Below are positions 10,651 through 29,678 of a DNA stretch of 64,000 bases, piece after piece. The notes beneath the pieces are model-generated. The model worked only from the letters and a program-made list of their open reading frames with translations, had not been told where the DNA came from and made no database searches. Source of the stretch: an uncultured delta proteobacterium (GTDB taxonomy: Bacteria > Desulfobacterota > WTBG01); assembly GCA_963793865.1 (NCBI GenBank), contig CAWCBP010000001.1:416001-480000 (forward strand). The letters run 5' to 3'. Position 1 is the first letter of the stretch. Each line of letters begins with the position of its first letter. The position numbers were made by a program, and so were the translations under genes.

Positions 10651-11214
10651 CTATGGGGACTGTTCCCAGTCTTTTATGATGGATACTATTTCCTGAGCAT
10701 CAGAGGCTGAGGTAAGCGCCTGAGTCAGATGCCGGTTTTGCATTGCTTTGCTGGCAAGGGACAAGACCTGTACCTGTTCATGAGGCTGTTTGCGCGGCGC
10801 GATAATCAGAAAGACACATGCGATGGGCTTGTCAGTCGAGACATCAACCACCCCCTGGCGGGTCAAACCGAGCGCAACCAGGGGAGCCGCAAGACCATCG
10901 ATGCGCGCGTGGGGAAAGGCAACCCCTTCGTTGAAGAACGTAGAGCTTTCCTTTTCCCGTTGCCATACGGCAGCATAGATGATGCTGTGATCAAGCTCTT
11001 TGCAATCCCGACCCATTGTATCGACCAGCGTTCTGATAACCTCTTCCTTAAAAGCCGGTTCCTGCCAGATAACAACTCTGCCGGCGGACATGTAGTCACT
11101 CAGCGCGGGTTGCCGGGCAGCCTGCGCCTGTTGCCCCGTGCTGTCAGGGCTGCTTTCAGCCGCCACAGGCTGCCCCGGCTGATTCCCGCCTGTCCGTCTG
11201 CGTATCCGGAACAA
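10651..11214 (-). CDS. PTS EIIA type-2 (PtsN-like) domain, possibly the C-terminus of the KdpD fragment
   Basis: REKESSTFFNEGVAFPHAR (phospho-His motif), D.KPI..VFLIIAP; no clear start or RBS, overlaps the end of the kdpD-N ORF in another frame. Confidence 0.8.
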   Translation of the reverse strand: MFRIRRRTGGNQPGQPVAAESSPDSTGQQAQAARQPALSDYMSAGRVVIWQEPAFKEEVIRTLVDTMGRDCKELDHSIIYAAVWQREKESSTFFNEGVAFPHARIDGLAAPLVALGLTRQGVVDVSTDKPIACVFLIIAPRKQPHEQVQVLSLASKAMQNRHLTQALTSASDAQEIVSIIKDWEQSP

Positions 11215-12319
11215 CTATGGTTATGCCATGGGCATTCTGGATGAGCTGTTCGACGATGCTCTTCCTCCCCAGGAGCCTTCGCCACAATGACGGCGGGGAG
11301 GAAGTGCCGATGACAATGTGACCCACACGATATTCACGGGCAAAGCGAAGAATGGTGTCGGCAATGTTGTCACCTTTATAGGTAAAGACGATGGCCCCGA
11401 GCTGCTTGGCAAGGGTCAGGGTGCCCGATAAAACACGCTGTGTCTGGGCGTCGATGATGGTCGGCTCTTCGGAAGAGGTCTGAACGTACACCGCATACCA
11501 GTTCCGGTTGAGCCTGCCCGCCAATCGTGAACCGTAGCGAAGCAGCATCTCGCTATTGGGACCCTTGGAACTGAGGCAAACCATAATCTGGTCGGGGGTG
11601 GAGATGCTTTCCTCTTCCAGCGGTTCACGCCTTCGCAAATCAATCTGCGCAGCCAGCTCGCGCAAGGTCAGCTCCCGCAGCTGCTCTAAATTTGAAGGGA
11701 TAAAAAAATTGCTGAGAGCGGTTTGAATGCGCTCCCGCGGATATATTTTCCCCTCTTCCAGGCGCTTGCGCAGGTCTTCGGTGGTTACATCCACGTTGAC
11801 GATCTGGTCTGCGTCGGCAAGCACCGTGTCGGGCATGCGTTCGCGCACTTTTACATGAACAGCCTTTTCAACCGTGTCGTACAGGCTCTCCAGGTGCTGC
11901 ACGTTAACGGTGGTGATGACATGAATGCCCGCCGCCAGAATATCCTGGACGTCCTGATAGCGCTTGGGATTGCGACTGCCCGGGGCGTTGGTGTGGGCTA
12001 TTTCATCGATCAGCGCCACCTGGGGCTTGCGGGCTATGAGCGCGTCGGCATCCATCTCCTCAAGCATAATGCCGCGGTACTCCTGACGAAACCGCGGGAC
12101 GACTTCCAGCCCCTCGGTGAGTTGCGCCGTTTCGGCGCGGCCGTGGGTTTCCACCAGCCCGATTACCACGTCGATGCCCTCATCCCTGAGGCGCCGGCCC
12201 TCCAGGAGCATTTGATAGGTTTTCCCCACCCCGGCACAGTACCCGAGGTAGACCTTGAGCCTTCCGCGCTGCGTGCGGCGGATCATCCTTAAGAATGAAC
12301 TGGTTCTATCTTCTGTCAT
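11156..12319 (-). CDS. kdpD: KdpD N-terminal sensor fragment (KdpD domain plus USP), no TM or kinase domain
   Basis: GRLKVYLGYCAGVGKTYQML, ETHGR, DEIAHTN, KRYQDV, NVQHLES, LRELTLR, then a USP domain. Confidence 0.88.
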   Translation of the reverse strand: MTEDRTSSFLRMIRRTQRGRLKVYLGYCAGVGKTYQMLLEGRRLRDEGIDVVIGLVETHGRAETAQLTEGLEVVPRFRQEYRGIMLEEMDADALIARKPQVALIDEIAHTNAPGSRNPKRYQDVQDILAAGIHVITTVNVQHLESLYDTVEKAVHVKVRERMPDTVLADADQIVNVDVTTEDLRKRLEEGKIYPRERIQTALSNFFIPSNLEQLRELTLRELAAQIDLRRREPLEEESISTPDQIMVCLSSKGPNSEMLLRYGSRLAGRLNRNWYAVYVQTSSEEPTIIDAQTQRVLSGTLTLAKQLGAIVFTYKGDNIADTILRFAREYRVGHIVIGTSSPPSLWRRLLGRKSIVEQLIQNAHGITIVVPDTQTDRRESAGAACGG

Positions 12320-12326
12320 TGATAAC

Positions 12327-12908
12327 CTATCTGACATCATCCAACGAGAGATTCAAACTGAGCACATTTACCCGGGGCTCACCTAAGACCCATACATCAC
12401 GCCCTTCAGTATGAGCTTTTACGCAGTCAAGCACAATCTTTTCATTCATGCCGCGTGCCCTGGCAACGCGGGGTGCCTGTAATATGGCATTTTTGACCGT
12501 GATGTGCGGATCAAGTCCACTGCCTGATGAGGTAACGGCATCAGCAGGTACTAAGACATCAAACGCAAGCCCGTTTTCGGCGCGGTAGTCGACTACGCGT
12601 TTCTTTACCGTCTCCAGTAATTTTTTTGAAAGGGGACCTAAATTACTGCCGCCGGAATTGGCAGCATCATAGCCCCGCCCTGCAGCGGAAGGTCGGGGAT
12701 GGAAATATTTTGCATCTTCAACCGGTTGGGCGAGCATGCTTGAACCGATTACTATTCCCTTTCTGGTGACCAGGGAACCATTGGCCTCATGCGGGAAAAA
12801 TAACTGGGCCAGAATCCATACGAGCAGAGGATACAAACCGCATAAAAGTATGCTTAAAGCCAGTGTACCTATCAATGCAATTCGCAGTTCCGCAATGAGT
12901 GCTTTCAT
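12327..12908 (-). CDS. kdpC: K+-transporting ATPase subunit C
   Basis: FPHEANGSL, YFHPRPSA, SGGSNLGP, DAVTSSGSGLDPHI, RVNVLSLN. Confidence 0.96.
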   Translation of the reverse strand: MKALIAELRIALIGTLALSILLCGLYPLLVWILAQLFFPHEANGSLVTRKGIVIGSSMLAQPVEDAKYFHPRPSAAGRGYDAANSGGSNLGPLSKKLLETVKKRVVDYRAENGLAFDVLVPADAVTSSGSGLDPHITVKNAILQAPRVARARGMNEKIVLDCVKAHTEGRDVWVLGEPRVNVLSLNLSLDDVR

Positions 12909-12922
12909 TTCAGTAATCCCTG

Positions 12923-14944
12923 CTACACAAGGTGAAAAGCATTTACCAGCATATCAATAACCTTTATACCAAGAAAGGGAGTTACCAGCCCTCCCATGCC
13001 ATAGATGAGAAGATTTCGTCGCAAAAGAGCTGCCGCACCGAGTGGTCGGAAATGGACACCGCGTAAAGCCAGGGGTATCAGAGCAATGATGATGAGGGCA
13101 TTAAAAATGACAGAGCTCAGGATCGCACTATGCGGAGAATGAAGCCCCATAATGTTTAATGGCTGGGTAACCGGAAAAAGAGCAATCAGCAGTGCCGGTA
13201 TGATGGCAAAATATTTTGCCACATCATTGGCAATGCTGAAGGTCGTCAGTGCGCCGCGGGTGATGAGCATCTGTTTCCCGATCTCCACAACTTCAAGCAG
13301 CTTGGTGGGATTGGAGTCAAGATCGACCATATTGCCCGCCTCTTTGGCCGCCTGGGTGCCGGTATTCATGGCCACCCCCACGTCGGCCTGGGCAAGGGCC
13401 GGCGCATCATTGGTGCCGTCCCCCGTCATGGCCACAAGATGACCGGCGGCCTGCTCCCTGCGTATCAGAGCCAGCTTGTCCTCCGGCCTGGCTTCGGCAA
13501 TGAAATCATCAACGCCCGCTTCATGGGCAATGGCAGCAGCAGTCAGACGGTTGTCCCCGGTGATCATAACGGTTTTAATGCCCATGGCACGGAATCGGTC
13601 AAAACGATCCTTTAGTCCGCCCTTCACAATATCTTTCAGATGGATCACTCCAAGCACGCGTGCGGTATCGGCAACAACCAAGGGCGTACCCCCCGAGCGG
13701 GCAATGCCATCCACTGTTTCCCGAACCTCTTCCGGGAAATCGGTTCCGACAAATTTACAGATCACATCAGCTGCCCCTTTCCTGATCTGCCTGCCGTCAA
13801 TATCAACTCCGCTCATGCGGGTTTGGGCAGAAAAGGCAGTGAATCTGGCATTGGGCATCTCGGCGATGGTTCGCCCCCGCAATCCATATTGCTTGGCCAG
13901 GACAACGATACTCCTTCCTTCAGGGGTTTCATCAGCAAGCGAAGCCAATTGCGCCGCGTCCGCCAATTCCTGAGCCCCTACCCCGGCTGCGGGGATGAAT
14001 TCAGTTGCCTGTCGCTCGCCCAGGGTGATGGTACCTGTTTTATCAAGGAGCAGCACATCAACATCCCCTGCCGCTTCAACCGCCCTGCCGCTCATTGCCA
14101 ATACGTTCTTCTGCACCAGCCGGTCAATGCCCGCAATCCCGATGGCGCTTAAGAGGCCGCCGATGGTGGTCGGTATAAGACACACCAGCAAAGCAACCAG
14201 CACGGTGATGGAAAACGATGTTCCTGAGTATAGACCAAAAGACTTCAGGGTCATGATGACGACCAGAAAAATGATCGTCAGCGCTGAGAGCAGGATGGTA
14301 AGGGCGATTTCATTCGGGGTTTTTTGCCGTTGAGCCCCCTCGACGAGAGCTATCATCCGGTCGAAAAAGCTTTCACCGGGATTTGCAGTAACCCGCACTT
14401 TTATCTGGTCAGACAACACCCGCGTACCTCCCGTCACCGCACTGCGGTCTCCACCGGCTTCACGAATGACCGGTGCGGATTCGCCGGTTATGGCTGATTC
14501 ATCAACGGTTGCAATCCCTTTTATAATTTCTCCATCAGCCGGTATAATGTCCCCGGCGGAGATGATTACCAGATCATGCTTGCGCAGCTGTTCTGCGGGG
14601 ACGTTTTCCATGACCCCTTCAGTGACACAACGATGTGCTACAGTATGAGTGCGGGTTCTGCGCAGGGAATTAGCCTGCGCTTTTCCCCTGCCTTCGGCCA
14701 GTGCTTCGGCAAAATTGGCAAATAAAACCGTAAACCACAGCCAGAGTGCAATCTGCAGCGTGAAACTGAATGGCTCGTCCTGGGTGATGAAAAAAGCGAA
14801 GAAGGTGGTTATGGCTGCTCCTGTTTCAGTGACAAACATCACCGGATTTTTCATCAGTGAACGAGGGTTGAATTTTTTTAATGAATCAACCACGGACTGC
14901 GCAATGATGGTACGTTCAAAAAGAGTATGCTTCCTTGGAGCCAT
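12923..14944 (-). CDS. kdpB: K+-transporting ATPase subunit B
   Basis: [48 protein letters not shown]. Confidence 0.98.
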
Positions 14945-14957
14945 TGATCCGTCTCCT

Positions 14958-16694
14958 TTAATAGAGAATATCCGAGCCGGTCATGAGAAAATGCTCAACG
15001 ACCGGCCCGAGAGAAAGCACCGGGAAGAAGGTCAAGGCACCGACAATGAGCACCGTTCCGATTAAGATGACCATAAAGGTAAGCCCTGCAACAGGAAGAC
15101 TTCCTTCGCTTGCAGGGATCATTTTTTTTCGGGCCATGTTTCCTGCCAGGGCAAGTACGGGCACAATCATGAAAAACCGCCCCAAGAGCATCCCCATCCC
15201 CAGCGTTGTATTAAACCATGCAGTGTTGGCGTTAAGTCCGGCAAAAGCGCTGCCGTTGTTGCCGGCTGCTGAAGTGAAGGCATACAGTATCTCGCTCAGG
15301 CCATGCGGCCCTCTGTTATTCAGGCCGGCTAATCCCCAATGACTTGTTGCGGCCCATGCACTAAACCCGAGGATACTGAAGATCAAGACAAGCATGGCCA
15401 GAACGCTCATCTTGACATCATAGGCCTCGATCTTTTTACCGAGATACTGTGGCGTGCGTCCCACCATCAGTCCGCATAAAAAAACGGCCAGCACCACAAA
15501 TACCAGCATCCCGTAAAGACCGGCGCCCACGCCACCGAATCCGATCTCGCCTAATTGAATATTTGCTAATGGGACTAATCCCCCCAGCGGGGTAAATGAA
15601 TCATGCATCGCGTTAACTGCACCGCACGAGGCATCGGTGGTTATTGTCGCAAAGAGGGCCGAATTGAAGATTCCAAAACGTACTTCTTTGCCCTCCATAT
15701 TCCCGTTCACCGGATCCACTCCCAGGGCATGCAGCCGGGGATTACCCGCTGTTTCTGCCCACCAGCACACCATAAAAGCCGTCAAAAAAAGCAGTAACAT
15801 GGATCCCCATATAACCCAGCCATGTCTCTGGTTTCTGACCGCCCGCCCGAGGTAATAGGTCAGGCCGCTCGGAATGAGAAAGATGGAGAGCATCTGAATA
15901 AAATTGCAAAGCGGTGTCGGATTTTCATAAGGATGGGAAGCGTTGGCGTTCATGAATCCCCCGCCATTAGTCCCGATCATTTTAATTGCCACCTGCGAGG
16001 CCATGGGACCTTGTGCAATCAACTGACTGCCGGCAGTCGCTTCTTTAATGCTGTGGTCAATGTGTGTGGCATGAACATAAGGCTGAAAGTTTTGCATCAT
16101 GCCCTGTGACACAAGGAATAGAGAATATATAAGGCAGATGGGCAGCAGCAGGTACAGGGTAACCCTGATGCTATCAACCCAGAAATTGCCTATGGTTTTC
16201 ATGCTCTGGCGTGCTATGCCGCGCACCAGGGCTGCCGCAACGGCTATGCCTGCTGCCGCGGAAATAAAATTATGAAGGGCAAGTCCTGCCATCTGCGAAA
16301 AGTAGGACAGGGTTGATTCCCCCCCGTAGCTCTGCCAGTTGGTGTTGGTGGTAAAACTGACTGCCGTGTTGAATGCAAGATCGGGGCTTGCAGGAGCAAA
16401 ACTTTGGGGATTAAGCGGTAAAAAATGCTGCAGGCGAAGAATGGCATAGGTGAACAGCAGGCTGACCAGACTGAAAGCAGAAAGAGAGAATGCGTATTGC
16501 TTCCAGGTTTGTTCTTTGGTGCTGTCTATGCCGAGAACCCGGTACAATAACCTCTCCAGCGGCTGCACCAGCGGGTCAATAAAGGTTTTGCCATTTGAGT
16601 CAAGAACGCTTACCAGATAGACACCCAGTGGTTTGGTAAATGCCAGCAGGATACCAACAAACAGGAATAGCTGGAGCCATCCGTACACATCCAT
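14958..16694 (-). CDS. kdpA: K+-transporting ATPase subunit A
   Basis: [40 protein letters not shown]. Confidence 0.98.
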
Positions 16695-16709
16695 AGATAA
16701 ACTCCCGTG

Positions 16710-16793
16710 TTAAAATTTTTCCGGTCTGATGACAGTGATCAACAGATAGATGATCACCAGGAATCCTATCAGACCCGCGGTCATTGCAATCAT
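16710..16793 (-). CDS. kdpF: KdpF small subunit (27 aa)
   Basis: Manual translation MIAMTAGLIGFLVIIYLLITVIRPEKF with the YL...PEKF signature, directly upstream of kdpA; below the ORF-track size cutoff. Confidence 0.9.
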   Translation of the reverse strand: MIAMTAGLIGFLVIIYLLITVIRPEKF

Positions 16794-16796
16794 TGG

Positions 16797-16880
16797 TTAC
16801 AACCTTTCGCAGAACAGGATGTACAGGAAGCACAATCCGAAGAAAACCATGACCATAAGCACATAGAGCAGGTCACTCAT
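16797..16880 (-). CDS. Second small hydrophobic kdp peptide (27 aa)
   Basis: MSDLLYVLMVMVFFGLCFLYILFCERL; GGGAG RBS; overlaps the kinase stop and ends 3 nt before kdpF. Confidence 0.72.
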   Translation of the reverse strand: MSDLLYVLMVMVFFGLCFLYILFCERL

Positions 16881-18721
16881 TTTTGCTCCCTTCCTGCGCA
16901 ATCGCGTCAGCTCGTCTCAGGGTAAATGTGAATCTGCTTCCCTTCCCATCACTGCTTTCCACCGAGATGGTTCCGCCATGGGCTTCCACAATCTCTTTGG
17001 CGATGGCGAGCCCCAGCCCGGCTCCGGTTTCGGACGCATCGCCCGGAACGCGGAAAAACTGATCAAAAACTTTATCCAGATACTGCCGGGGGATACCCCT
17101 GCCGGTGTCGGCAATCGAAAAGCTGACCCATTCCTTGAATCCCTGTGCGGCAAGCGTCACGCTGCCGCCCGGTGCGGTATATTTGAGCGCATTGGATAGC
17201 AGGTTGGAAAAGACATGATCAATGCGTATCCGGTCGGCCCACACCTCCGGCAGATCATCCGGCACCTCGATGGTGAGACGGACGCCGTGATCCTTGCAAG
17301 CGCTCTGGAACGGTTCCACTGCCTGCAGCGCCAGTGCCATCGGTGATATGGCACGGCAGTCCATCTGCGCCCGTCCCGATTCAATCCTGCTGATATCGAG
17401 CAGATCTTCAACAATGGCGTGTAATCGGTCGCTGTCGTCCCGCGCGGCAATTAACAGCTCTGCCTGCTTGTCGGTCAGCGACCCTGCTTTTTCTTCAAGC
17501 AGCAGATGAATGGCCATGCGGATGGAGGTGAGGGGTGTCTTCAACTGGTGGGACACGGTTGCGATTAATCCCTTCTTCATGTCATCCTGCTGTTGCATCC
17601 GGGTTATGTCTTCAAAAATAAGTACGATGCCGACGGGCTGTCGCTCATTGTCCAGGATCGGTACCGCCCTGGGACGAAAAAACCGCTCCTCACCCTTTAC
17701 GAACTGCTGGATAATGGCGTACTCGTTTTTCCCCTCCAACGGCACGGCCGCTGTTGAGCGCGCTGCCGTATAATGCAGACATCCATTGAAAGGGGACATC
17801 CTGTATCTTTCTCCGGGGCTTAAGCCCGAATGTTTCCCGGGCTGTTTCGGTTGCCACCTCAATCGTTCCCTCCAAATCAATTAACGCCACAGAATCAGGG
17901 AGGCTGTTGAATGCCGTTTGCGTCGAACGCTGAACTCGTACCAGCTTTGCCTGATCGCTGCGGCGGAATTCACGAAGACCGGCGGTCATCTTGTTAAATG
18001 CCTCCGAGAGCCGCCCGATTTCATCCCGGGAGTTGCTCTGAATAAACAGTTCCAGATTGCCGCGCGTGACCTGGTCGGTGAAATCGATCAGCCTGGTAAT
18101 CGGCCGCAATATCCACCCGCCGGTAAAATAAATGAAAACAATGGCAACGGTGGCGCCGGTGAGCAAAAGGTAGTACATCCGCTGTCGCGCTGATGCCGCT
18201 TTTGCCCGCGCCCGGTCATTGGCCTCACTCATGTTCTCCTGGTTCATGTGTATGACATCGTCTGCCGACTCCCGTATCTGCTCATAAAAAGGCAGCAGCC
18301 TGGCAAAATAAACATCGCGCCCGGCGTCGAAGGTTACGCCGGCACTTCTTATCTGCCGCAGTGTTGCCCGGTACTGTTCAAACGCGCTTTTGATAAAACC
18401 GGCTTTTTCTCCTTCATCGGGGAGGGTGATGTTGTTTAATTCAATCTGCAGCGCTTTTTCGAAATCCATTTCGTTTTTTGCAATCTGCTCTTCACCCATA
18501 TCCCGATAACCGAGCATGATGAAAAGCGCCCCGGTATCCATTCGCTGCAGGGCTTCCTTCATCTGCTGGCATGCAATAACGCTCCGGTAATTTTCGCGGA
18601 GAATAACATCGATGGATTGCTCCAGGTGCGCCAGCTCTCGAATGCTTTGGATGCCGATGAGCACAATGATAAAGAGCAGACCACCAAAGCCAAGAATCAA
18701 TTTTTGACGAAGGCCGATCAT
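16873..18721 (-). CDS. Membrane sensor histidine kinase (periplasmic helical bundle, HAMP, PAS, HisKA, HATPase); frameshift near 17745
   Basis: ORFs 17690..18727 and 16873..17880 overlap; DEIGRLSEAFNKM HAMP, SHQLKTPLTSI H-box, NLLSNALKYT, GAGLGLAIA; RBS GAGGAG before ATG 18721. Confidence 0.85.
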
Positions 18722-18746
18722 ATGCACTCCTCAGTGATACGATGTA

Positions 18747-18762
18747 TTCAAAGATTGTGCCA
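18747..18762 (-). promoter_or_regulatory. sigma54 (-24/-12) promoter candidate for the kinase-kdp operon
   Basis: Minus strand TGGCAC-AATCT-TTGAA (GA instead of GC at -12); adjacent to an NtrC-type activator gene. Confidence 0.6.
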
Positions 18763-18825
18763 CGGGGGATCATTGGAAACGGCTTGAATACTATGGATTA
18801 TTTTACGGGGCATCGGGGAGGGGTT

Positions 18826-18870
18826 TTGTATTTTGCAAGGAAACGTTTCTGACAGCCTTGCAGATTGCAA
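18826..18870. promoter_or_regulatory. Tandem palindromic enhancer-binding site candidates
   Basis: ttgtattttgcaa (18826) and ttgcagattgcaa (18858), 32 bp apart, upstream of the sigma54 motif. Confidence 0.5.
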
Positions 18871-18906
18871 AGCTCACTATGAGTGGAAAGGGATTGGGGC
18901 ACGATG

Positions 18907-20262
18907 TTAGATTCCGTACTGCTTGCGACGCCGCCAGAGTGTGGCCTGGTCGATGCCGAGAATATCAGCGGCCTCCTGCAATGATTTTGCCGAAGCCAGC
19001 ACACGCCGGATGTGCTGTTCCTCAATGGTTTCCAGGTCAACCGGATCACCCAGCTGGGTAACCGCTAGTCGAGGGCGCAAGGAGTCAGGAAGATGCTCGA
19101 TGCCCACACGATCTCCCCGGCACATAATTGCAGCATGCTCAACAATGTTGCGCAGCTCCCGTATATTTCCGGGCCAGACATGGTTTCTCATGGCATTGAG
19201 CGCCTCTTCGCTGAAGCCCAGGAATTGCCGGTGATTTGCCCTGCCGAAAAATTGCAAGAGACGTTCCGCCAGCGGGATAATGTCATCCTGGCGCTCGCGC
19301 AGGGGAGGCAGTATAATTTGAATCACATTGAGCCGATAGAAAAGGTCTTCCCGAAACCGGCCATCCCGCACAGCCTTTTCCAGATCTATATTAGTTGCGG
19401 CCATAACCCGCACGTCTGCCCTGCGGGTTATGGAGTCGCCGATCCGTTCATATTCATGATCCTGGATAAAGCGCAGCAGTTTAGGCTGAAGCAGCAGCGG
19501 CAGGTCTCCTATTTCATCCAGCAGCAGCGTACCCCCTTCGCACGCGGCAATGCGTCCGGGACTATCATGGTCGGCTCCGGTAAAGGCCCCCTTGAGATGG
19601 CCGAACAATTCGCTTTCCAGCAACTCTGAGGGAATGGAAGGACAGGAAATATTGCTGAAGGGTTTCTTGGCGCGGCCGCTCCAGAGATGGATCATCCGGG
19701 CCAAAACAGTTTTGCCGGTGCCGTTTTCCCCTCTGAGCAGGATTGTGGCATCTGTGGCTGCAACCTGCTTGGCCATGCCCAGCACCCGCTGCATGGCAGC
19801 GCTTTGAGTCGAAAAATCGATTTCAGGATTCGCCCTCCCCAGGTCCTCCTTGAGAATAGCTATCTTTTGCTCCAAGGTGCATACTTCAACCACTTTTTGA
19901 ACTGCAAGTTTTACCTGGGAGGGAGTGAACGGCTTGGGTATGTAATCAGTGGCTCCCCGGCGCATGGCCTCCACCGCCGTGTCAATAGAGGCATAGGCAG
20001 TTATAATGATTATCTTAAGCCACGGCGTTATGACCTTTAACCGGGTAATCAAGTCAAGTCCGCTGGCCGTGCCCAGGCGGAGATCAACAAAAGCCGCATC
20101 AAAGCTTCTTCGCGATGCTTCCGCGACGGCATCCTGAAAATTGCTTACTGAAATAACCCGGTGTCCTTCTGCTTCAAGGCAGAACGATAACGTTTTGCGA
20201 ATATTTGCCTCGTCATCGACAACCAGGACATGTAAGGACATGGTTCCGGCCGGCTCACTCAT
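18907..20262 (-). CDS. sigma54-dependent NtrC/AlgB-like response regulator
   Basis: REC domain (VVDDE, D, KPF), GENGTGKT Walker A, ESELFGH..GAFTGA, LLDEIG, WPGNIREL, Fis-type HTH. Confidence 0.93.
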   Translation of the reverse strand: MSEPAGTMSLHVLVVDDEANIRKTLSFCLEAEGHRVISVSNFQDAVAEASRRSFDAAFVDLRLGTASGLDLITRLKVITPWLKIIIITAYASIDTAVEAMRRGATDYIPKPFTPSQVKLAVQKVVEVCTLEQKIAILKEDLGRANPEIDFSTQSAAMQRVLGMAKQVAATDATILLRGENGTGKTVLARMIHLWSGRAKKPFSNISCPSIPSELLESELFGHLKGAFTGADHDSPGRIAACEGGTLLLDEIGDLPLLLQPKLLRFIQDHEYERIGDSITRRADVRVMAATNIDLEKAVRDGRFREDLFYRLNVIQIILPPLRERQDDIIPLAERLLQFFGRANHRQFLGFSEEALNAMRNHVWPGNIRELRNIVEHAAIMCRGDRVGIEHLPDSLRPRLAVTQLGDPVDLETIEEQHIRRVLASAKSLQEAADILGIDQATLWRRRKQYGI

Positions 20263-20435: not shown

Positions 20436-20978
20436 ATGGCGGTACATGAAATAACCGAGGAGCAGCGGGACAGAATCGTTGAAAGAATGATTAACGTGCT
20501 CGGCCTGGAACGGAAGCATCCGACGAAACAGGAGCTGGAGGAGGAGATTATCGACTACCTGGGCAAGAAGCACCCCTGCGCCCTGGGTACCTGCGGCAAG
20601 GACGGGATACCGCGCATCTCCATGGTCGACTACATGAACGATGGCCTTACCTTATACATTTTGAGCGAGGGGGGAGACAAGTTCAAAAACATCCGGGAGA
20701 ACAATCGGGTTGCCGTGGGCATCGGCACTTCAACGCACACCATGCGCTCGGTGAGGGGGGTCAACATGTGGGGGACGGCGGACATCTTCACCGATGACAC
20801 ACCGGAGTTCGCCACAGCCCTGCAGCTTTTTAAGCCCTTCCTTGATGATATCGCAAAGCTCACCGGGAAGCCGCCGCAGCTTCCTCCCGGCGTGATGAAG
20901 GTGATCCGCGTGACTCCCGCGAGGATGATCTACTTCCATTACAACAAGGGCATCGGGAACGAGCTGTGGGAGGCGTAG
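20436..20978 (+). CDS. Pyridoxamine 5'-phosphate oxidase-like split-barrel protein
   Basis: CALGTCGKDGIPRISMVDY...YILSEGGDKFKNIRENNRVAV...RGVNMWG; RBS GGAGG before ATG 20436. Confidence 0.8.
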   Translation: MAVHEITEEQRDRIVERMINVLGLERKHPTKQELEEEIIDYLGKKHPCALGTCGKDGIPRISMVDYMNDGLTLYILSEGGDKFKNIRENNRVAVGIGTSTHTMRSVRGVNMWGTADIFTDDTPEFATALQLFKPFLDDIAKLTGKPPQLPPGVMKVIRVTPARMIYFHYNKGIGNELWEA

Positions 20979-21128: not shown

Positions 21129-21214
21129 TTTCGGATTTGATTCTGGACGTGCAGATGCTTCTAATCTGTCGACTGCAAACTGAAAACTGTCAACTAAGCT
21201 AAAGGAGGCGACCC

Positions 21215-22003
21215 ATGACCGTCAACCGAAACGACGTTGTAACCTTTCTTACCGAGGTGAACAGCCGCTTTGAACAATTCTGCGCGCGGTTCAACCCGGG
21301 TGGCAGGGTTGATAAAAAGTCATGGGACACACCCATGGGCAGGCTGGACGCGGTGAGATCATCGGGGGTGGTTTTTGAAAAGGCGGCCTCAATTTTCTGC
21401 GATCTTACCATCGAGACCCCGCCGGTGCTCGCTGAAAAGATCGGCCAGAAAGGCAGCCGGGCCGAGGCGTTTGTGCTGGAGATCAATTGTTACCCGGTAA
21501 ATCCGCACATTCCCCGCGGCTACATGGAGCTGAGGGCCAATATAACCGACACCATAGTTTTCGCCGGGGGGACGGACATCTTTCCTTATTTCCCGGTGGA
21601 AGAGGACGCGGCCTTTTTTGCCGGGGGCATGAAGGAGCTTTGCCATGAGCATGGGCAGGATTACGAAAAACTGAGAAAAACCAGGGCTGATTTCTTTGTA
21701 TCAAAATTCAGAAATGAAAACGTGGGGAGCCACGCGGGGATATACGCCTTCCATCTCGAGGCGCGGGAGTTCCCCTTTTTTAAGGATATGGCGGAATATT
21801 TTTTCAGGCTCTATGGCATGCTGGTGGAGGCGGGCGGGAAAAGAAGCTTCACCGCCGAGGAGCAGCGGCGCATGCGGGAGATTCACGGGGTGTGGGTGGA
21901 ATGGGTTTTGCTCGAGGATGCGGGGACCAGGTACGGTCTGGAAAAAGGGATACCACCTGATGCCCTGCTCGGAACGATCCTCCCGCCTCAGGCGACCTTT
22001 TAA
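21215..22003 (+). CDS. Divergent coproporphyrinogen III oxidase (HemF)-fold protein
   Basis: GVVFEKA, PVNPHIP, FAGGTDIFPYF, ED..FF, VEW.L.ED.GT.YGL and ILPP align in order with HemF motifs, but the conserved His/Arg residues are replaced. Confidence 0.75.
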   Translation: MTVNRNDVVTFLTEVNSRFEQFCARFNPGGRVDKKSWDTPMGRLDAVRSSGVVFEKAASIFCDLTIETPPVLAEKIGQKGSRAEAFVLEINCYPVNPHIPRGYMELRANITDTIVFAGGTDIFPYFPVEEDAAFFAGGMKELCHEHGQDYEKLRKTRADFFVSKFRNENVGSHAGIYAFHLEAREFPFFKDMAEYFFRLYGMLVEAGGKRSFTAEEQRRMREIHGVWVEWVLLEDAGTRYGLEKGIPPDALLGTILPPQATF

Positions 22004-22020: not shown

Positions 22021-23982
22021 ATGAAAAATGTGCGGCCTTTCAAATATTACGGCTGGCGGGGCAAAATACTGCAGGTTGACCTGACCGCTTCGAAGCTGTG
22101 GGTGGAGGATTTTCCGGAGGATCTGACCGGCGATTACACAGGGGGCGCGGGGGTAAACGCCCGGCTCTTTTACGACCTGGTGCGCGGCAATCCCGACCTG
22201 GATCCCCTGTCGCCCGACAACCCGCTCATCTTCGGGTGCGGACCGGTGGTGGGCACCTCCTTTCCCTGCGCCACGCGCTTCACCGTCACCGCCAAAAGCC
22301 CGCTCACCAGGCTGTTCGGTGATTCCAATGCCGGCGGCTATTTTGCGGTGCGGATGAAGAAGGCGGGATATGATCACATCGTTTTGCGCGGGAAGGCTGA
22401 GCGTCCCTCCGCGCTGCTGATCCAACAGGACGGGGAAGCCCGGCTTGTTGACGCATCGTCATGGTGGGGCCTTGATACCTACAGCGCTGATGAGCGGATC
22501 CTGGAGGCGTACGGTGACTGCGAAACCGCCCGCATCGGGCCCGCCGGAGAACATCTGGTGAGGTACGCCAATATTTTTTCCGGGACAAAGCGGGTGAGCG
22601 CCAATGGCCGGGCGGGCATGGGATGTGTCATGGGTTCGAAAAACCTGAAGGCCGTCATCGTGCAAGGCGACGGGACGGTTCCGGCAGCCCACCCGCGAAA
22701 GCTCAGCGCCCTGGCCAAGCGATATCAGGAGATATGGGGCAAGGGACCTTCAACCATGGTTCAGAAGGAGTTCGGGACCCTGATGCTCATTGCCCAGATC
22801 GGACTCGAGACCTCGACGCGCAATGACCAGGGACGGATTACCCCCGAGGGGCTTGACGCCTACGATCTGGAAAAATTCTTAAGCATCTACAAAAGCGGGA
22901 AATCGGCCTGCTACCGCTGTCCCGTCGGCTGCTCTCAAAAATGGAAAATACCCGAGGGACGGTTTCAGGGGGAGGAAGGCGATAAGATCGAGTTCGGCCA
23001 CTACGTAAGCCTGGGACCGCAGCTGGGCATCTTTGATTTTCCCTCCCTGCTGCACGTGGCCGACCTTTCCAACAAACTGGGCATGGACTGCACCCAGCTC
23101 GGCTGGAACCTTTCCATGGCCATGGAGTGCTTCCAACGGGGAATTATCGGCAGTGAGGAAACCGGCGGGGTGGATCTTACATGGGGTGATGTGAACGGGG
23201 TGTGTGATCTCATGCAGCAAATCGCCCGCCGGGAGGGATTCGGGCGGGTGCTGGCCGACAGCATCCCGGACATGATCGAGCAGTGGGGACCGGAATCGGA
23301 ACCCTACGGATTTCACACCAAGGGAATGACCTTTCCCTACAACCGCCATGCGGTGATGGCCATGAATCTTGCCTCGTCGGTGGCGGCGCGGGGGGCGGAC
23401 CACATGAAGGGCCACCCCTTCTCAGCCCTCACCGGCGCGCGGGACATGCTGGAGCGCATTTTCGGCAGGGACATTCCCGACGAGATGACGGACAGCAAAA
23501 GCCCGGTCGGGAAGGGCCGCGCGGTCTGGTGGCATGAGAATTACAAGATGGCCATGGATTCGCTGGGCCTGTGCTTTATCCCGATGGCGGGAACCACCAT
23601 TTATGGCGATCCCATGATCCTCTTCGAAGAGATGGGGGAAATCTACCAGGCGGTGACCGGCATGGATCCCGGAACGCTCTTTGAGTCAGCCGAGCGGGCG
23701 AACCAGGTTGAGCGCTGCTACAACACGCTGCTGGGCGTCAGCAGGAAGGATGACCGGAGAAAGGGCACGACCCGCGGCGAGGAGGATCCCATCGATCATC
23801 CCGGCATGCTCGATGAATATTATTTCTACCGGGGGTGCTCGAAGGAGGGCAGGCCCACCCGCAGCAGGCTGCGCGAGCTGGGCCTCGAGGATGTGATCGG
23901 GGACCTTGAGAAGCGCGGTTTTCTCGAGGAGCTTGATGCCCCGGCGATTACCGAGCTGGTGGCCCCGGCAGGTTCCGACTGA
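22021..23982 (+). CDS. Tungsten aldehyde:ferredoxin oxidoreductase family protein (AOR-1)
   Basis: GKILQVDLT, KSPLT..FGDSNAGG, IGPAGE, GRAGMGCVMGSKNLKAV, CYRCPVGC, RGADH, DSLGLC. Confidence 0.92.
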   Translation: MKNVRPFKYYGWRGKILQVDLTASKLWVEDFPEDLTGDYTGGAGVNARLFYDLVRGNPDLDPLSPDNPLIFGCGPVVGTSFPCATRFTVTAKSPLTRLFGDSNAGGYFAVRMKKAGYDHIVLRGKAERPSALLIQQDGEARLVDASSWWGLDTYSADERILEAYGDCETARIGPAGEHLVRYANIFSGTKRVSANGRAGMGCVMGSKNLKAVIVQGDGTVPAAHPRKLSALAKRYQEIWGKGPSTMVQKEFGTLMLIAQIGLETSTRNDQGRITPEGLDAYDLEKFLSIYKSGKSACYRCPVGCSQKWKIPEGRFQGEEGDKIEFGHYVSLGPQLGIFDFPSLLHVADLSNKLGMDCTQLGWNLSMAMECFQRGIIGSEETGGVDLTWGDVNGVCDLMQQIARREGFGRVLADSIPDMIEQWGPESEPYGFHTKGMTFPYNRHAVMAMNLASSVAARGADHMKGHPFSALTGARDMLERIFGRDIPDEMTDSKSPVGKGRAVWWHENYKMAMDSLGLCFIPMAGTTIYGDPMILFEEMGEIYQAVTGMDPGTLFESAERANQVERCYNTLLGVSRKDDRRKGTTRGEEDPIDHPGMLDEYYFYRGCSKEGRPTRSRLRELGLEDVIGDLEKRGFLEELDAPAITELVAPAGSD

Positions 23983-24006: not shown

Positions 24007-24714
24007 TCAGAAGAGCAGCCCCAGGATTTTCCGGGCCTTCTCCTCGCCGAGCGCCTTGCGCAGCGGTCCCTCGCCGGGATCGTTTTCCATCATGATCCTG
24101 AGCATGTCCCGCTTTCTGCCGTTTAAGGCCTTCATGTAATCGGGATCCGCTTTTCCCGCCTCCGACCAAAACTTTATAAAGAGCTTCAAATAATCAACGG
24201 TGATATCCAGCGCCCTCGCTTCGATGTTTTCCACATCATACTTGATCTTTCCGTAGGCGTAAAAGGGAGAGAGCATTACCCGCTGCCAGAGGTAGCGCTC
24301 CGTCCCCATGCCCTCAATGTCCCTGTACTTTTTCCAGAGCTCTTCCATGGGCGCCATGTACTTATCGAGGTAGTCCATGTCACGGCCGCAGTCGGCGAGG
24401 GGGATGAGGTCCGTCCGCAGGCTTAAGTGATTGACCGCCTGGACAATCTCCGAGGTGAACAGGGGAAAGGGATACTCGTCGGCGGGAACAATGGTGGTGC
24501 CGTAGACGATGATTTTGCCGCCCATGATGTCCGCCTTGATGGTCACGATCTTGTCAAGCTTATCGGCTTCAAAACAGCGCATGGTATGCACCATCATGTC
24601 GGTTTCGATCTCGGCAAACCCGGTGATGTCATCACCGCGGTAGGATTGCATGGGCCGGGGATTGATCGGCTGCAAGGTTTCGATGATGCGCTCAAAGTAA
24701 GGAATGGCTTGCAT
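24007..24714 (-). CDS. Ferredoxin-dependent bilin reductase / red chlorophyll catabolite reductase-like protein (FDBR-1)
   Basis: P..EYPFPLFTSEIVQ...DLIPLAD....DYLDKY, RVMLSP, DYLKLF, ENDPGEGPLRKALGEEKA....LLF match the FDBR/RCCR motif order and ~240 aa length. Confidence 0.75.
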   Translation of the reverse strand: MQAIPYFERIIETLQPINPRPMQSYRGDDITGFAEIETDMMVHTMRCFEADKLDKIVTIKADIMGGKIIVYGTTIVPADEYPFPLFTSEIVQAVNHLSLRTDLIPLADCGRDMDYLDKYMAPMEELWKKYRDIEGMGTERYLWQRVMLSPFYAYGKIKYDVENIEARALDITVDYLKLFIKFWSEAGKADPDYMKALNGRKRDMLRIMMENDPGEGPLRKALGEEKARKILGLLF

Positions 24715-24935: not shown

Positions 24936-26785
24936 CTATCCTTTGATAATAGTGTCCAACCCCAGCTCCTGCAGCTTCTCCCTCGAAGGCCGGCCTGTGC
25001 GGGGATCCCATCCCATTGTTCCGCAGTACTCGGAGACCATGGTTTTGGCGTCGATGGTAATTCCCTGCAGCGGTCCTGCCGCCAGCGGCGGATCACCGAT
25101 CATTCTACCGGGCATCTTCCAGTCCGCAAATGAGATGCCCTCCCGCAAATTGAAGGCCATCCGCATGTTGGCAATCCGCTCCCCGGCAGTGAGCAGATCA
25201 TCCAGGGTGCGGCTCTCGCCGGTCACGCACTCCATGAATTGCTGTATCATCGGCACCCCGTAGACCATGAGGGCAAAGTAGCAGATGCCGGTCGCGTTTA
25301 CCACATGGGTGAGGTTGCTCATGAAGCGATGCATGTCGCCCTTGCCGGTGAAGCGGTATTTTTCCACCTGGCCGAAGGGGACACCGGGAATCATGAATCC
25401 GCTCTCCGGGAAGGCCGAGCCTCCCTGCATGTGACGGGCGGGCGTCGCGTCGGCGGCATAGGCGGTGGCGTATCCCGGGGTGTTGCGAGGATCGTGCATG
25501 GGGAGTTCCTGTCCTCCCAGATGCATGGCATACCGCTCAGCCCCCTTGCCGATCTTCTCTGACGCCCTGCGCACGCCATCGGCGAGGAGCGCCCCGAAGC
25601 CTTCCCGTCGCGCTATCTTCTCGGTGAGGGCCACGATGGCCTGATGGTCCCCCCAGGTCAGCTCAATGCCGCCGGTGTCATCTTTGCCCACGATGCCGTT
25701 TTGGTAACATTCGATGGCAAAGGCGACCGAGGCCCCGGTGGAAATGGTGTCGAGACCGGCGCGGTTGCAGATATCATTAATTTTTATAATGGACTCAAGA
25801 TTGTCATTCAAACAAAGGGCGCCGAAAGCGCACAAGGTCTCGTATTCAGGCTTGTGGGTTTCACAGGCATAGGGGGACGAGTCGACGGTGACTTCTCCGC
25901 CGCAGGCGATGGGGCATCCGAAGCAGGCGTACTTCTTTTTCTGACGCGCAATCACGCTCCCGTCGCTGACAGCGGCCGCGTTGGGAAAATCCTCCCCGTC
26001 CCGCCCCAGTTTTTAACCGGCGATTCGCCGCTGGCCGCAAACATGGCGGTAACGCCGCAGGTGCCCAGGCCCGAGAAGAGTTGAAAGGTGGGGCTGTTCT
26101 TTCCGTCGGCAATGAGTTTCTGCCGCAGATTCCTGGCGGCTTCCTCCTGCGCGACCGGTATGGCGCCTGTTCCCTTTACCACCACCGCCTTCAGCCGCTT
26201 GGAGCCCATGAGCGCGCCCAGGCCGGATCGCGCCGCGGCGCGCCACTTGTCGTTGATGATACAGGAAATCAATGAGCATTTTTCTCCCGCGGGCCCGATG
26301 CCTGCAACGCGGATATCCAGCCCCAGCTCTTCTTTCATCCGGTCTTCCATCTGATTGGTGTCCAGGCCGGCATATGGCCTGGCATCCCGCAGCTCGGCCT
26401 TGCCGTCAGCGATAAAGAGATATGTCCAGGTGCCGGCCGCTCCTTCAAAAAAGACGCCGTCATATCCCGCCTTTTTCAACGCCGGTCCGAAGAATCCGCC
26501 GGAGTTGGCATCTCCCCAGGCCCCGGTGAGCGGCGATTTGCCCATCACCGTGTAGCGGGATGAGCTGATGGCCGGTGTCCCGGTCAGGGGGCCCGTCGCG
26601 AAACCCAGAATGTTTGCCGGGTCAAAAGGAGGCAGCTTCGGCTTTTGCCTCTCGTAAATGAGCCGTGCACCCAAACCATAGCCGCCAAGGAATCGGCGGT
26701 AGAGATCCGGATCCGGTTTCATGGTTTCGATTGCGCCTTTGGAAAGATCAACCCAAAGCAGCTTTCCGACAATACCACCTTTCAT
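24936..26785 (-). CDS. Tungsten aldehyde:ferredoxin oxidoreductase family protein (AOR-2); frameshift in a G-run near 25995
   Basis: N-half KSPLTGAWGDANSGG, IGPAGE, MGSKRLKAV; C-half CFGCPIACG, KPEYET, GLDTIS, HDPR; adding one G restores GGTGEDFPNAAAVSDGSVIARQ. Confidence 0.9.
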
Positions 26786-27043: not shown

Positions 27044-28495
27044 ATGATCTATGACGTTGTGATTGTCGGCGCGGGTTCCAATGGCTCTACGGCTGCATAC
27101 TTTCTGGCCAAGCGAGGATTCAAAACCCTGCTGATCGAGTCAGGAAGGACGCCGGGGGATAAATGCCACGGGGCGACCGAATATGCCCCGGGGGTGATCT
27201 TCCACAGTCGCAAAGAGCTGGTTGCCCTGATGCTCAGGGTGCTTAAGCAAATACCCCATCTGCATCCGGGGGACCTGGGGTCGGCCCACTCCTATTATTA
27301 TGTCAACGGCGAGAACAAGGTTGTCTTCAAATCCTGCGTGTTTGCCCCCGGCACAACCGGCAAGGAAGAGAGCTACGGGGTCAACAACCAGGATTTCGTG
27401 CGGGTGCTGACCGAAGAGGCGGTGAAGGCGGGCGCCGAACTCAAGAACGGTACCACGGTGGTTGATCTCATCCGCGAGGGAGACGGCATCGGCGGCGTGG
27501 TGACAGAAGGCGGTGAGAAGATACGGGCGCGCCTCACCTTCGCCGCGGACGGCAGGTTATCCTCGGTCGCCAAGATGGCGGACCTGCTCGACAAGTGGGA
27601 CCCCAACGTGTGCTGCTACCAGTATGGCGAAGCCTGGAAGTTCAGATCCGAAGAGGAGATGTTTGACTATGTGGAGCACGCGCGGCACATGTTTTTCGGG
27701 CCCACCCTCACTCCGCCGAAACCCTGGGGCGCCTGTACCATATCGCTGCGGCCGGGAGGCATTGCAACGGTAAATGCGCCCACCAGCTGGACGCCCTTAA
27801 GCTCCATGGTCAGCGCCGGGAAAAATTCCCGCAGCGTGTACATGCGCCGGCTGTACAGCATCATGGAGGTGCGCCGGATGCTGCGCCCGTGCGAGGGGTT
27901 CCCCGACCGGCCGATGCAGCGCCAGTCCACCTTTTTGCCGGGCCCGCCACTCAAGAAGCCATATAAGAAGGGGCTTATCATCTGCGGCGATGCCGGCGCC
28001 GTCGGCGGCATATGCGGGGCGGGTGAACGCGCCGCTCAGTATGTCATTCCCCTGCTGGAACGGAATGATCTCTCGGAGGAAGTCCTGGCGGGATTTGCCG
28101 CGGCGCGCTTCCCCTGGGGTGTGGATCGCGACCAGGGCAAGTCGGAGAAAAACCGGCCCACCAAGGAGCTTTCCGAAGTGAGCCCCACCCGCATCGTCCA
28201 TTGGAGCGCGGGCGCCGGCTATGTCGAGAAATTCAACTGCAGCATGGAGGAGATGGTGGAGAACATGCGGCTGGCCGCAGTGCCTCATGTCATGGGCACG
28301 CCGAGTCCGGAGAAGTGCGGCGAGTTCGGCTACGTGGAGATGGGGGCGTGGCTTATCGCGGTCAAGATAAACCACCTGCTTTCATTGTACGGCCCGATAC
28401 TGCAGGATCCGGCCATGTTCCCGCGAATCCTCAAGTGGGTTCAGAAAAACCAGGAGTCATTTAACCGGAACCGGGTGTTTGATCATCCGTTTTGA
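27044..28495 (+). CDS. FixC/geranylgeranyl-reductase-like FAD oxidoreductase
   Basis: YDVVIVGAGSNGSTAA Rossmann motif, E.G..PGDK, AADG, GLIICGDAG; followed by a ferredoxin as in fixCX. Confidence 0.8.
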   Translation: MIYDVVIVGAGSNGSTAAYFLAKRGFKTLLIESGRTPGDKCHGATEYAPGVIFHSRKELVALMLRVLKQIPHLHPGDLGSAHSYYYVNGENKVVFKSCVFAPGTTGKEESYGVNNQDFVRVLTEEAVKAGAELKNGTTVVDLIREGDGIGGVVTEGGEKIRARLTFAADGRLSSVAKMADLLDKWDPNVCCYQYGEAWKFRSEEEMFDYVEHARHMFFGPTLTPPKPWGACTISLRPGGIATVNAPTSWTPLSSMVSAGKNSRSVYMRRLYSIMEVRRMLRPCEGFPDRPMQRQSTFLPGPPLKKPYKKGLIICGDAGAVGGICGAGERAAQYVIPLLERNDLSEEVLAGFAAARFPWGVDRDQGKSEKNRPTKELSEVSPTRIVHWSAGAGYVEKFNCSMEEMVENMRLAAVPHVMGTPSPEKCGEFGYVEMGAWLIAVKINHLLSLYGPILQDPAMFPRILKWVQKNQESFNRNRVFDHPF

Positions 28496-28750: not shown

Positions 28751-28939
28751 TTGAGGGCAGAGCGTGATGCCGGATACATGATGCACGATCCAGGATGCAA
28801 GAAAATGCGGCCTCACTGACCCTGTACCCTTAACCCTGCCACCTGTTTTTTTAACCACGAAGCACACGAAGAAAGAGAAAAGCACGAAGGGCACGAAGAG
28901 AAATACTATCTCGAAAGAAATGCCGTGAAGGAGGAACAT

Positions 28940-29678
28940 ATGGACGGAAGGGGACTAACAAAATTCTGCTATGAAACGCTGGCGCGGGAGGTAAAGCTGG
29001 AAAAGGTGCCCGGGCTTGACGACGTGGCACAGGTAAAACTGCTCAGCGGGGAAGACGGCGGCGGTATTCAGGCGTATCGGGGAGACCGGATTGACAAGGT
29101 GACGCTGGTAGATTTGAGGTTCGGCGGCGGCATCCCGGTGCCCCATCATGACCATAAGCTCGCGATCGGCTCAGAGGTATTTCAGATACTCCCGGATCTG
29201 ACCTACAAGATGCCCATCTGGGGCATCAACTCTATCGTCATGAAGGATGGAACTTACCACTTCGATACCGATTTCACCTTCGGCTTCGACCTGGTCATGG
29301 ATTATCAGTTCGCCATGAAATACTTGGAGCCGTTCAGCGCCGTCTCTAAAAAATTTTGGAACCATAAAGATTTCAAGCGGGTCAACCTGGACGATTTCAC
29401 GACGTGGGTGAGGACCTATATTTCGCCGGCGTTTGTCATGGTCGCGCACCCGGGTTGAAAACGTTTCCACCGTGTATGAACTGTGCACCGAATTCATCAA
29501 GTGCTGGCTCGCCATGTACCGCGAGGCCGAGAAAAGGGATGAAGGATTTAAGCAGGAGCAGCTCAAACGAATAAAAGCCCAGTACGGAGGCATGCAGCAG
29601 ACCGACCGGATGGGAAAAGTTATCATGAATGCCTATGGCCAGGAAACCTTTGCCAAATTTTTTAAGGCCATGCTGTAG
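28940..29678 (+). CDS. Second FDBR/RCCR-like protein (FDBR-2); frameshift near 29445
   Basis: YRGDRIDKV, PDLTYKMPIWGIN, DLV.D...KYLEP, WVRTYISPA, W...Y, TDRMGKVIMNAYGQE; ORFs 28925 and 29433 join to about 245 aa; colinear with FDBR-1. Confidence 0.65.

Follow-up and report, generated by a model that had tools for sequence, protein, structure and literature searches.

A remodelled, conserved HemF-fold subfamily in bacteria that seem unable to make coproporphyrinogen III, often encoded near tungsten-family oxidoreductase genes

PMC13564367 describes coproporphyrinogen oxidase (CPO) of the HemF type only as an aerobic enzyme. According to the main text of PMC10151467, all known enzymes of the fold that CPOX shares with the bilin reductases (FDBRs) and red chlorophyll catabolite reductase (RCCR) are ultimately oxygen-dependent, any sequence similarity between CPOX and FDBRs falls short of statistical significance, and the enzymes of the fold arose after oxygenic photosynthesis. 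FDBRs are reported to protonate their substrate with an Asp on the central sheet (PMC6755814). Among the aldehyde ferredoxin oxidoreductases (AORs), Glu313 of the Pyrococcus furiosus enzyme is described as conserved in known aldehyde-oxidising members (PMC12096430, PMC13328260). Here we describe a HemF-like protein, the query, and its orthologues (together, the query subfamily), which differ from these systems in their pocket, their hosts and their neighbourhood.

The query is encoded in a stretch of 64,000 nucleotides from an uncultured delta proteobacterium, referred to throughout as the window. The gene order runs PNPOx-like, query, AOR-1 (forward), FDBR-like, AOR-2 (reverse), then a geranylgeranyl-reductase-like flavoprotein and a second FDBR-like gene (forward), as follows:

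20436..20978, + strand: PNPOx-like split-barrel protein upstream of the query, its start placed from homologues
21202..21208, + strand: Shine-Dalgarno-like AAGGAGG, 6 nt 5' of the query ATG
21215..22003, + strand: the query, a HemF-fold protein of a non-canonical conserved subfamily (intact open reading frame, 262 residues)
22021..23982, + strand: AOR-1, tungsten/molybdenum oxidoreductase family, 653 residues, 17 nt downstream of the query stop
24007..24714, - strand: FDBR-like protein, convergent with AOR-1 (Pfam Fe_bilin_red, 61.6 bits)
24936..26785, - strand: AOR-2, interrupted by the loss of one base near 25995 as compared with three relatives, a probable assembly error
27044..28495, + strand: geranylgeranyl-reductase-like FAD oxidoreductase
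28925..29678, + strand: second FDBR-like gene, interrupted by one extra base near 29446 as compared with locus L002, a probable assembly error

Several further AOR genes of the same genome are also short or split, and together with the indels at 25995 and 29446 this suggests assembly errors. An apparent fusion of the HemF-like and AOR genes in locus L002 was rejected, as single-base gaps near window positions 21925 and 22041 explain it. No ferredoxin gene was seen beside the query in the window, no cofactor motif was found at the locus, and a promoter and terminator scan gave results at chance level. For expression there were low-depth contigs of relatives and, in one metatranscriptome, two short pieces on the query reading frame, which we do not count as evidence of transcription. 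From its translations we take the reverse-strand stretch at window positions 11156-20262 to be a potassium pump cluster of the kdpFABC type that also includes a piece of a KdpD-like sensor, a histidine kinase and a response regulator of the sigma-54 type.

The original prediction, which was made from the sequence alone, that 21215-22003 encodes a HemF homologue was borne out, as the reading frame is intact and scores 101 bits against the Pfam family Coprogen_oxidas (PF01218; cut-off 31.8). The sequences of nine solved CPOs match it with E values of 6e-16 to 2e-4, and its score against the NCBIfam HemF equivalog PRK05330 is 106.7 bits, below the cut-off of 297. The same prediction foresaw that automated pipelines would mis-annotate the gene as hemF, and the named public records of homologues do indeed read "coproporphyrinogen III oxidase". 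An AlphaFold2 model of the query (pLDDT 94) has the HemF alpha/beta fold, with the Leishmania CPO 3ejo as its closest structure (Z 32.1, rmsd 2.2, 253 aligned residues), followed by yeast CPO and then the bilin reductases and RCCR (Z 12.7-20.6), with unrelated folds from Z 6.2; Foldseek gave the same picture. Comparison with PebA (2x9o; Z 20.2, rmsd 2.9, 215 aligned residues) also places the model in the alpha/beta/alpha sandwich fold of the FDBRs. Pfam gave no match to PF05996 (Fe_bilin_red) in the query at E 0.1, and an ESM Atlas search returned PF01218 clusters only.

A homologue search returned 100 proteins with 44-95% identity to the query, the full-length ones mostly 259-265 residues long; records of related sequences are labelled as uncultured Thermodesulfobacteriota or delta proteobacteria, with a few from Ca. 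Schekmanbacteria and under other labels. The query-subfamily profile finds a single copy in each of 20 of the 42 genomes of the host's class, and five pairwise comparisons gave dN/dS values of approximately 0.05-0.13 for the query gene. That the query is a decaying hemF pseudogene is suggested by the loss of several canonical residues and by one relative (L023) having the gene in two frames, but the likelihood of this is negligible and we rule it out on conservation, given the number and identity range of the homologues, the dN/dS values and the invariance of the replacement residues; the substitutions are kept in 68 distinct orthologous sequences, which does not support decay. A literature search that covered few subscription journals, and main texts without supplements, listed no paper on the query subfamily or its link to AORs, and none joining a bilin reductase with an aldehyde ferredoxin oxidoreductase; the supplementary trees of PMC10151467 and PMC13446030 may include related sequences.

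To describe the pocket we use human CPOX numbering, fixed on chain 2aex (offset 108). The 68 distinct query-subfamily sequences were set against 76 canonical HemF sequences, drawn from the top 150 phmmer matches by filtering on RGRY-like and DRGT-like motifs, and because of this filter the C-terminal conservation of the canonical set is partly by construction; positions 244, 258, 260, 262, 282 and 332 lie outside it. The principal positions are:

21479..21481, + strand: Glu89, replacing CPOX Ser244 (Glu in 68/68); aligns with PcyA His88 via the next proline
21521..21535, + strand: the strand Tyr103-x-Glu105-x-Arg107, replacing CPOX His258-x-Asn260-x-Arg262 (each 68/68)
21575..21577, + strand: Asp121, the retained CPOX Asp282 (68/68)
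21917..21919, + strand: Asp235, the retained CPOX Asp400 (65/65 sequences reaching the position); aligns with the Asp of the FDBR-like "DP" motif

R262 is retained as R107 (68/68), G402 as G237 (65/65) and G406 as G241 (invariant in 62 rows). R332 has become Val in 65 and Leu in three of the 68 sequences, R389 His (59) or Gln (6), Y399 Glu234 (65/65), R401 Glu, Ser, Asp or Ala, and R413 Pro247. All four motif changes reported in the original prediction (including FRNENVG, IHGVWVEWVL and DAGT) are present at the aligned places. Its description of the protein as stripped of its conserved residues was right for S244, H258, N260, R332, R389 and R401 and wrong for R262, D282, D400, G402 and G406, which are kept, and the first three of the lost residues have given way to the invariant Glu89, Tyr103 and Glu105. 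A preprint on human CPOX (10.64898/2026.07.02.735896) lists S244, H258, N260, D282, R332, D400, G402 and G406 as substitution-intolerant, and R328, R389 and R401 as tolerant. By that measure four of the eight intolerant residues (S244, H258, N260 and R332) are changed in the query subfamily, and the arginine losses that had been stressed, R389 and R401, are real but weigh less than supposed. Judged from the alignment, the pocket is remodelled from basic to acidic, and is rebuilt rather than stripped or decayed. An invariant or near-invariant Glu at position 260 or 262 is found in four anaerobe subfamilies (68/68, 16/19, 14/14 and 11/11), where canonical HemF has Asn at 260 (73/76) and Arg at 262 (74/76).

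The alignment of the query with PcyA is below 15% identity and its register is uncertain by two residues: counting from two conserved prolines (MAFFT), Glu89 matches PcyA His88 and Glu105 matches PcyA Asp105, and in hhalign the register of the second strand is two residues off, with PcyA Asp105 on Arg107, where three other subfamilies have Glu. PMC10151467 counts His88 and Asp105 among the three residues that it calls critical to catalysis by PcyA. The query alignment suggests that the CPO and FDBR sites lie on the same sheet face; PMC13446030, however, describes them as lying on opposite faces, which would void the analogy of Glu89 and Glu105 with the PcyA residues.

The host genome (3.85 Mb, 98.6% complete) has no match to HemE (TIGR01464), to a heme-copper oxidase or to a type II reaction centre, and neither ferrochelatase nor HemN over cut-off; heme oxygenase was found in none of the 42 class genomes, the host's own included. 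It does contain an AhbC/D-type radical SAM gene, in two pieces that score 279 and 90 bits against a cut-off of 500. Judged by this gene content, the host seems unable to make coproporphyrinogen III, the substrate of HemF, and would have no use for a CPO. It nevertheless carries five PF01218 matches (seven HemF-like genes after iteration, one of them split) and 14 PF05996 matches (approximately 17 FDBR-like genes after iteration), which amounts to roughly 24 copies of the HemF/FDBR fold, together with 29 AFOR_N (AOR) matches.

Our class survey covered 42 genomes that are related by descent, many of them incomplete, and found HemF-like genes in 30, FDBR-like genes in all 30 of these and in 32 genomes in all (6-22 matches each), and PCP_red domains (2-11 copies) in 32/32 FDBR-positive genomes. 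HemE was over cut-off in 0/30 HemF-like-positive genomes vs. 7/12 of the others, with HemE-like matches under cut-off in three of the positive genomes, and the median AOR count was 19 vs. 6. As these genomes are kin, the co-occurrence of HemF-like, FDBR-like and AOR genes represents few independent events. Two of the 20 carriers of the query subfamily have a sub-cut-off HemE-like match, at 252 bits over the full length in G033 and at 121 bits, partial, in G039. In a sample of 401 genomes of the phylum, PF01218 matches occurred in 11, all in the class of the query. The replacement of intolerant residues and the distribution of HemE support the original prediction of a repurposed subfamily, and we consider it very probable that the query is not a coproporphyrinogen oxidase.

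Elsewhere in the host genome (G000), a 4Fe-4S dicluster ferredoxin domain is fused to an FDBR-like domain in a protein of 333 residues (G000:C1:67141-68142, L117:17142-18143, - strand). Two tandem HemF-like paralogues that retain the equivalent of His258 (G000:C8:197417-198959, L110:12418-13960) belong to a subfamily in which Glu mostly takes the Arg262 position and whose profile is the most strongly linked to FDBR-like proteins. At G000:C6:140763-142441 (L113:16788-18442) the gene directly after an FDBR-like one is HemF-like, highly divergent and missed by Pfam and NCBIfam at the thresholds used. Nitrogenase-like pairs with PCP_red tails lie at G000:C14:239995-242960 and C6:10123-12780, and the second subunit of the C14 pair has its best scores, under cut-off, to the DPOR proteins BchB and BchZ. 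On the same contig, at G000:C14:217415-220155 (L123:7416-10156), an FDBR-like gene 79% identical to that of the window is followed by an OYE-family flavoenzyme with about equal scores to bilirubin reductase, BaiCD and mycofactocin reductase, all under cut-off. A B12 radical SAM protein of the host scores best, below cut-off, to BchE. FDBR-like genes adjoin the DPOR-like pair, the BchE-like radical SAM protein and the OYE-family reductase, all of which fall below curated cut-offs. HemF-like paralogues adjoin FDBR-like genes, flavoproteins and amidohydrolases, and their neighbours also include a nitroreductase, an isochorismatase, FAD_binding_4 flavoproteins and a corrinoid methyltransferase set.

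The relation to FDBRs was examined with hhalign, using a profile built from 36 FDBR-like sequences found in the lineage. Taken together, the 118 HemF-like sequences from anaerobes scored 95.6% (95-97% for this wider family across comparisons), two anaerobe HemF-like subfamilies alone 94-95% and three balanced draws of 28 anaerobe sequences 96%. Canonical HemF in draws of equal size gave 2-35%, and the controls (10 column-shuffled and one reversed) did not exceed 0.33%. The query subfamily alone reached 0.5-1.6%, i.e., no significant similarity to FDBR-like profiles. A sequence bridge between HemF and FDBRs thus exists within the anaerobe family, and not through the query gene. The link between HemF and FDBRs that the original prediction proposed holds for that wider family but fails for the query subfamily, which lies among the closest to canonical HemF in the tree. 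Structural intermediacy was considered as well and rejected: the model of a C8 paralogue has Z 30.0 to CPO and 19.8 to PebA, values like those of the query, with no shift toward FDBRs.

A quick tree separates the canonical HemFs, as a single clade with SH-aLRT 100, from at least six lineages of anaerobe HemF-like proteins; the query subfamily and P0102-P0104 lie nearest to that clade. With FDBR-like rows as outgroup, quick trees built without the long-branch C6 subfamily and without three of the FDBR-like rows group canonical HemF with the query subfamily and P0102-P0104 at a support of 92-96. We did not accept the nesting of canonical HemF in the anaerobe family that these trees give, as a single clade of the anaerobe proteins is not rejected by an AU test (LG+G4, p 0.18), and for this reason an anaerobic origin of HemF is allowed by the sequences, not shown. 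P0102, P0103 and P0104 are short HemF-like proteins (252-266 residues, with RGxW-V-E/Q-FNL-x-ED motifs) intermediate between the query subfamily and canonical HemF, and two of them come from Ca. Schekmanbacteria; P0150, of another HemF-like subfamily, is named from Dehalococcoidia.

Within 5 kb of the orthologue there is an AOR at 10/17 genome loci (8/14 of those with at least 6 kb of flank) and at 15/46 metagenome loci (7/18), with L001-L026 omitted as duplicates of genome loci and matches below 200 residues dropped; the background is 253 of the 3632 predicted genes of the host genome (7%). Three AOR types directly adjoin orthologues. The AOR-1 type lies downstream of them, as does a type with 29-31% identity, and a type with 35-37% identity lies upstream. 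Many orthologues sit amid housekeeping genes, and at L001 and L030 orthologues 83-84% identical to the query have no AOR-1 alongside. The constant link to one AOR orthologue that would mark a dedicated AOR subunit was not seen, the AORs being frequent, optional and of at least three types. The AOR link is therefore a statistical neighbourhood association and not an obligatory one, and the coupling to an AOR claimed in the original prediction is found at this locus (same strand, 17 nt apart) and at about half of the orthologous loci, with the other half lacking an AOR within 5 kb. In one sub-lineage (L007, L009, L051, L053, L055 and L080) an MFS-type transporter and a 151-residue protein without an NCBIfam match are conserved downstream of the orthologue in place of the AOR.

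AOR-1 retains the four Fe-S cysteines and the equivalents of Thr243, Tyr427 and His448. It has Gly326 at the place of Glu313 (Gly in 8/8 orthologue rows), and E-F-G-H where the aldehyde-oxidising AORs have E-Y-E; the upstream type adjoining orthologues in L011, L043, L045 and L048 has E-L-A at that site. Over all AORs adjoining orthologues, the Glu313 column holds Gly in eight rows, Ala in four, and Glu in the L023 row, which is poorly aligned and whose motif is not EYE. AOR-1 may be other than a simple source of electrons, since it is without the Glu313 found in aldehyde-oxidising AORs. The main text of the 2026 WOR classification contains none of the terms "bilin", "coproporphyrinogen" or "tetrapyrrole".

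Because the active site is rebuilt and the anaerobic hosts seem to be without the HemF substrate, the query probably acts on heme- or chlorophyll-type molecules without oxygen. The explanation we put forward, tentatively, is an oxygen-independent, ferredoxin-fed and cofactor-free tetrapyrrole reductase of the HemF/bilin-reductase fold. Asp235 (CPOX D400) and Arg107 (R262) would still hold the pyrrole NH groups and one carboxylate, and the loss of R332, R389, R401 and R413 would suit a substrate with fewer free propionates than coproporphyrinogen, a candidate being an environmental heme or chlorophyll derivative. The new Glu89 and Glu105, with Tyr103 and His224, may protonate the substrate, and electrons would come from ferredoxin, reducible by the neighbouring tungsten-family oxidoreductases, so that the query would be one step of an anaerobic pigment-processing network. 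Both the substrate and the direction of electron flow are guesses. In favour of a reductase we count the fold, the invariant Glu at 260/262, the joint expansion of HemF-like, FDBR-like and AOR genes without HemE or heme oxygenase, the AOR neighbourhood, and the ferredoxin-FDBR-like fusion, DPOR-like pair and BchE-like protein of the host genome. Against it stand the lack of significant profile similarity between the query subfamily and FDBR-like proteins (0.5-1.6%), a model much closer to CPO than to any FDBR, the roughly half of the loci without an AOR within 5 kb, the lack of a ferredoxin gene alongside, and the sub-cut-off scores of the tetrapyrrole-type neighbours.

Much of this evidence can be read in other ways. 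The Glu, Tyr and His of the pocket would fit acid-base chemistry equally well, and the query could be a tetrapyrrole isomerase, hydratase or non-oxidative decarboxylase, or a carrier to the adjacent atypical AOR, with no electron transfer. This would suit the lack of a cofactor motif and of a ferredoxin partner at the locus, as well as the adjoining AOR types, which (the L023 row aside) have no Glu in the Glu313 column and may take unusual substrates. We regard it as doubtful, as the characterised members of the fold in PMC10151467, PMC13446030 and PMC10548856 are all described as redox enzymes, and the ferredoxin-FDBR-like fusion points to electron transfer, at least on the FDBR-like side. 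It is also feasible, if slightly more doubtful, that the fold was recruited for a planar substrate other than a tetrapyrrole, such as an aromatic or N-heterocyclic compound of sediment organic matter, with the paralogue expansion reflecting many such substrates: a single pigment class would hardly seem to call for some 24 paralogues of one fold and 29 AOR genes, most propionate-contacting arginines are lost, and the neighbours listed above range from amidohydrolases to a corrinoid methyltransferase set. However, the D400 and R262 equivalents are invariant in the query subfamily, DPOR-like and BchE-like genes lie beside FDBR-like genes in the host genome, and every FDBR-positive genome also carries PCP_red domains.

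Another reading, that the query still decarboxylates porphyrinogen propionates oxidatively, using O2 or some other acceptor and perhaps acting on a different porphyrinogen, strikes us as improbable, since S244, H258, N260 and R332, all intolerant according to the CPOX preprint, are replaced, and neither ferrochelatase nor HemN reaches cut-off in the host genome, which has no HemE match or heme-copper oxidase and carries an AhbC/D-type radical SAM gene, albeit in two pieces. It would be in keeping with the place of the query among the nearest relatives of canonical HemF, with the retention of R262, D282, D400, G402 and G406, with its single copy in 20/42 genomes, and with the sub-cut-off HemE-like matches in G033 and G039; the cyanobacterial HemF2 is a precedent for a shifted substrate (PMC10548856).

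If the query turns over a tetrapyrrole without oxygen, it would offer a first enzymatic way into what becomes of pigments in anoxic sediments, and a naturally occurring variant for probing how CPO works without a cofactor. In contrast to the account in the main text of PMC10151467, approximately 24 copies of the fold occur in a bacterium without a match to heme oxygenase, heme-copper oxidase or HemE, and at the profile level HemF is joined to FDBR-like proteins through sister subfamilies. A broader proposal, which we consider unlikely as it stands, is that this class of sediment anaerobes lives partly by oxygen-free breakdown of heme- and chlorophyll-type pigments via HemF- and FDBR-fold reductases fed by tungsten enzymes, the query among them, and that oxygen-dependent HemF arose from such an anaerobic family; if true, the fold need not postdate oxygen, contrary to PMC10151467. 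Through the query, anaerobic pigment turnover and the history of the fold both become open to test. At a minimum, our results correct a recurring mis-annotation that would imply oxygen-dependent heme synthesis in these genomes, and multi-copy, remodelled HemF proteins in organisms without HemE should surprise specialists.

Of the known systems, HemF/CgdC/CPOX (PF01218; 3ejo, 8t7w, 2aex and 1tkl) is the closest in fold (Z 32.1, TM 0.85, 22-25% identity in structural alignments) and in profile (probability 99.9%), and shares R262, D282, D400, G402 and G406. The query differs from it in S244E, H258Y, N260E, R332V, R389H, R401E/S/D and R413P, is approximately 40 residues shorter, has a host without HemE and falls in a clade apart from all canonical sequences sampled. 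With the FDBRs (PcyA, PebA, PebB, HY2 and pre-PcyA; PF05996) and red chlorophyll catabolite reductase, the query shares the sandwich fold (Z 13-20) and, as far as the alignment can place them, an acid on the central strand near PcyA Asp105 and the Asp of the "DP" motif, and FDBR-like genes accompany HemF-like genes in every HemF-like-positive genome (30/30). It is unlike them in its 8-13% identity and in having neither a Pfam match nor a profile match to FDBR-like proteins, and its class has no heme oxygenase to supply biliverdin (0/42). The FDBR/RCCR-like sequences of Ca. Schekmanbacteria are, like the query, uncharacterised fold members in non-phototrophs; the main text of PMC10151467 places them only as an outgroup, with no mention of HemF-like paralogues or an AOR link, and we find that Schekmanbacteria also carry the query subfamily and the related P0102 and P0104. 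HemF2 of tolyporphin biosynthesis, set against the query here by its description in PMC10548856, is still an oxidative decarboxylase and belongs to a cyanobacterial biosynthetic cluster, and yet it resembles the query in being a HemF paralogue with an altered pocket, its tetrapyrrole substrate having shifted to protoporphyrinogen IX.
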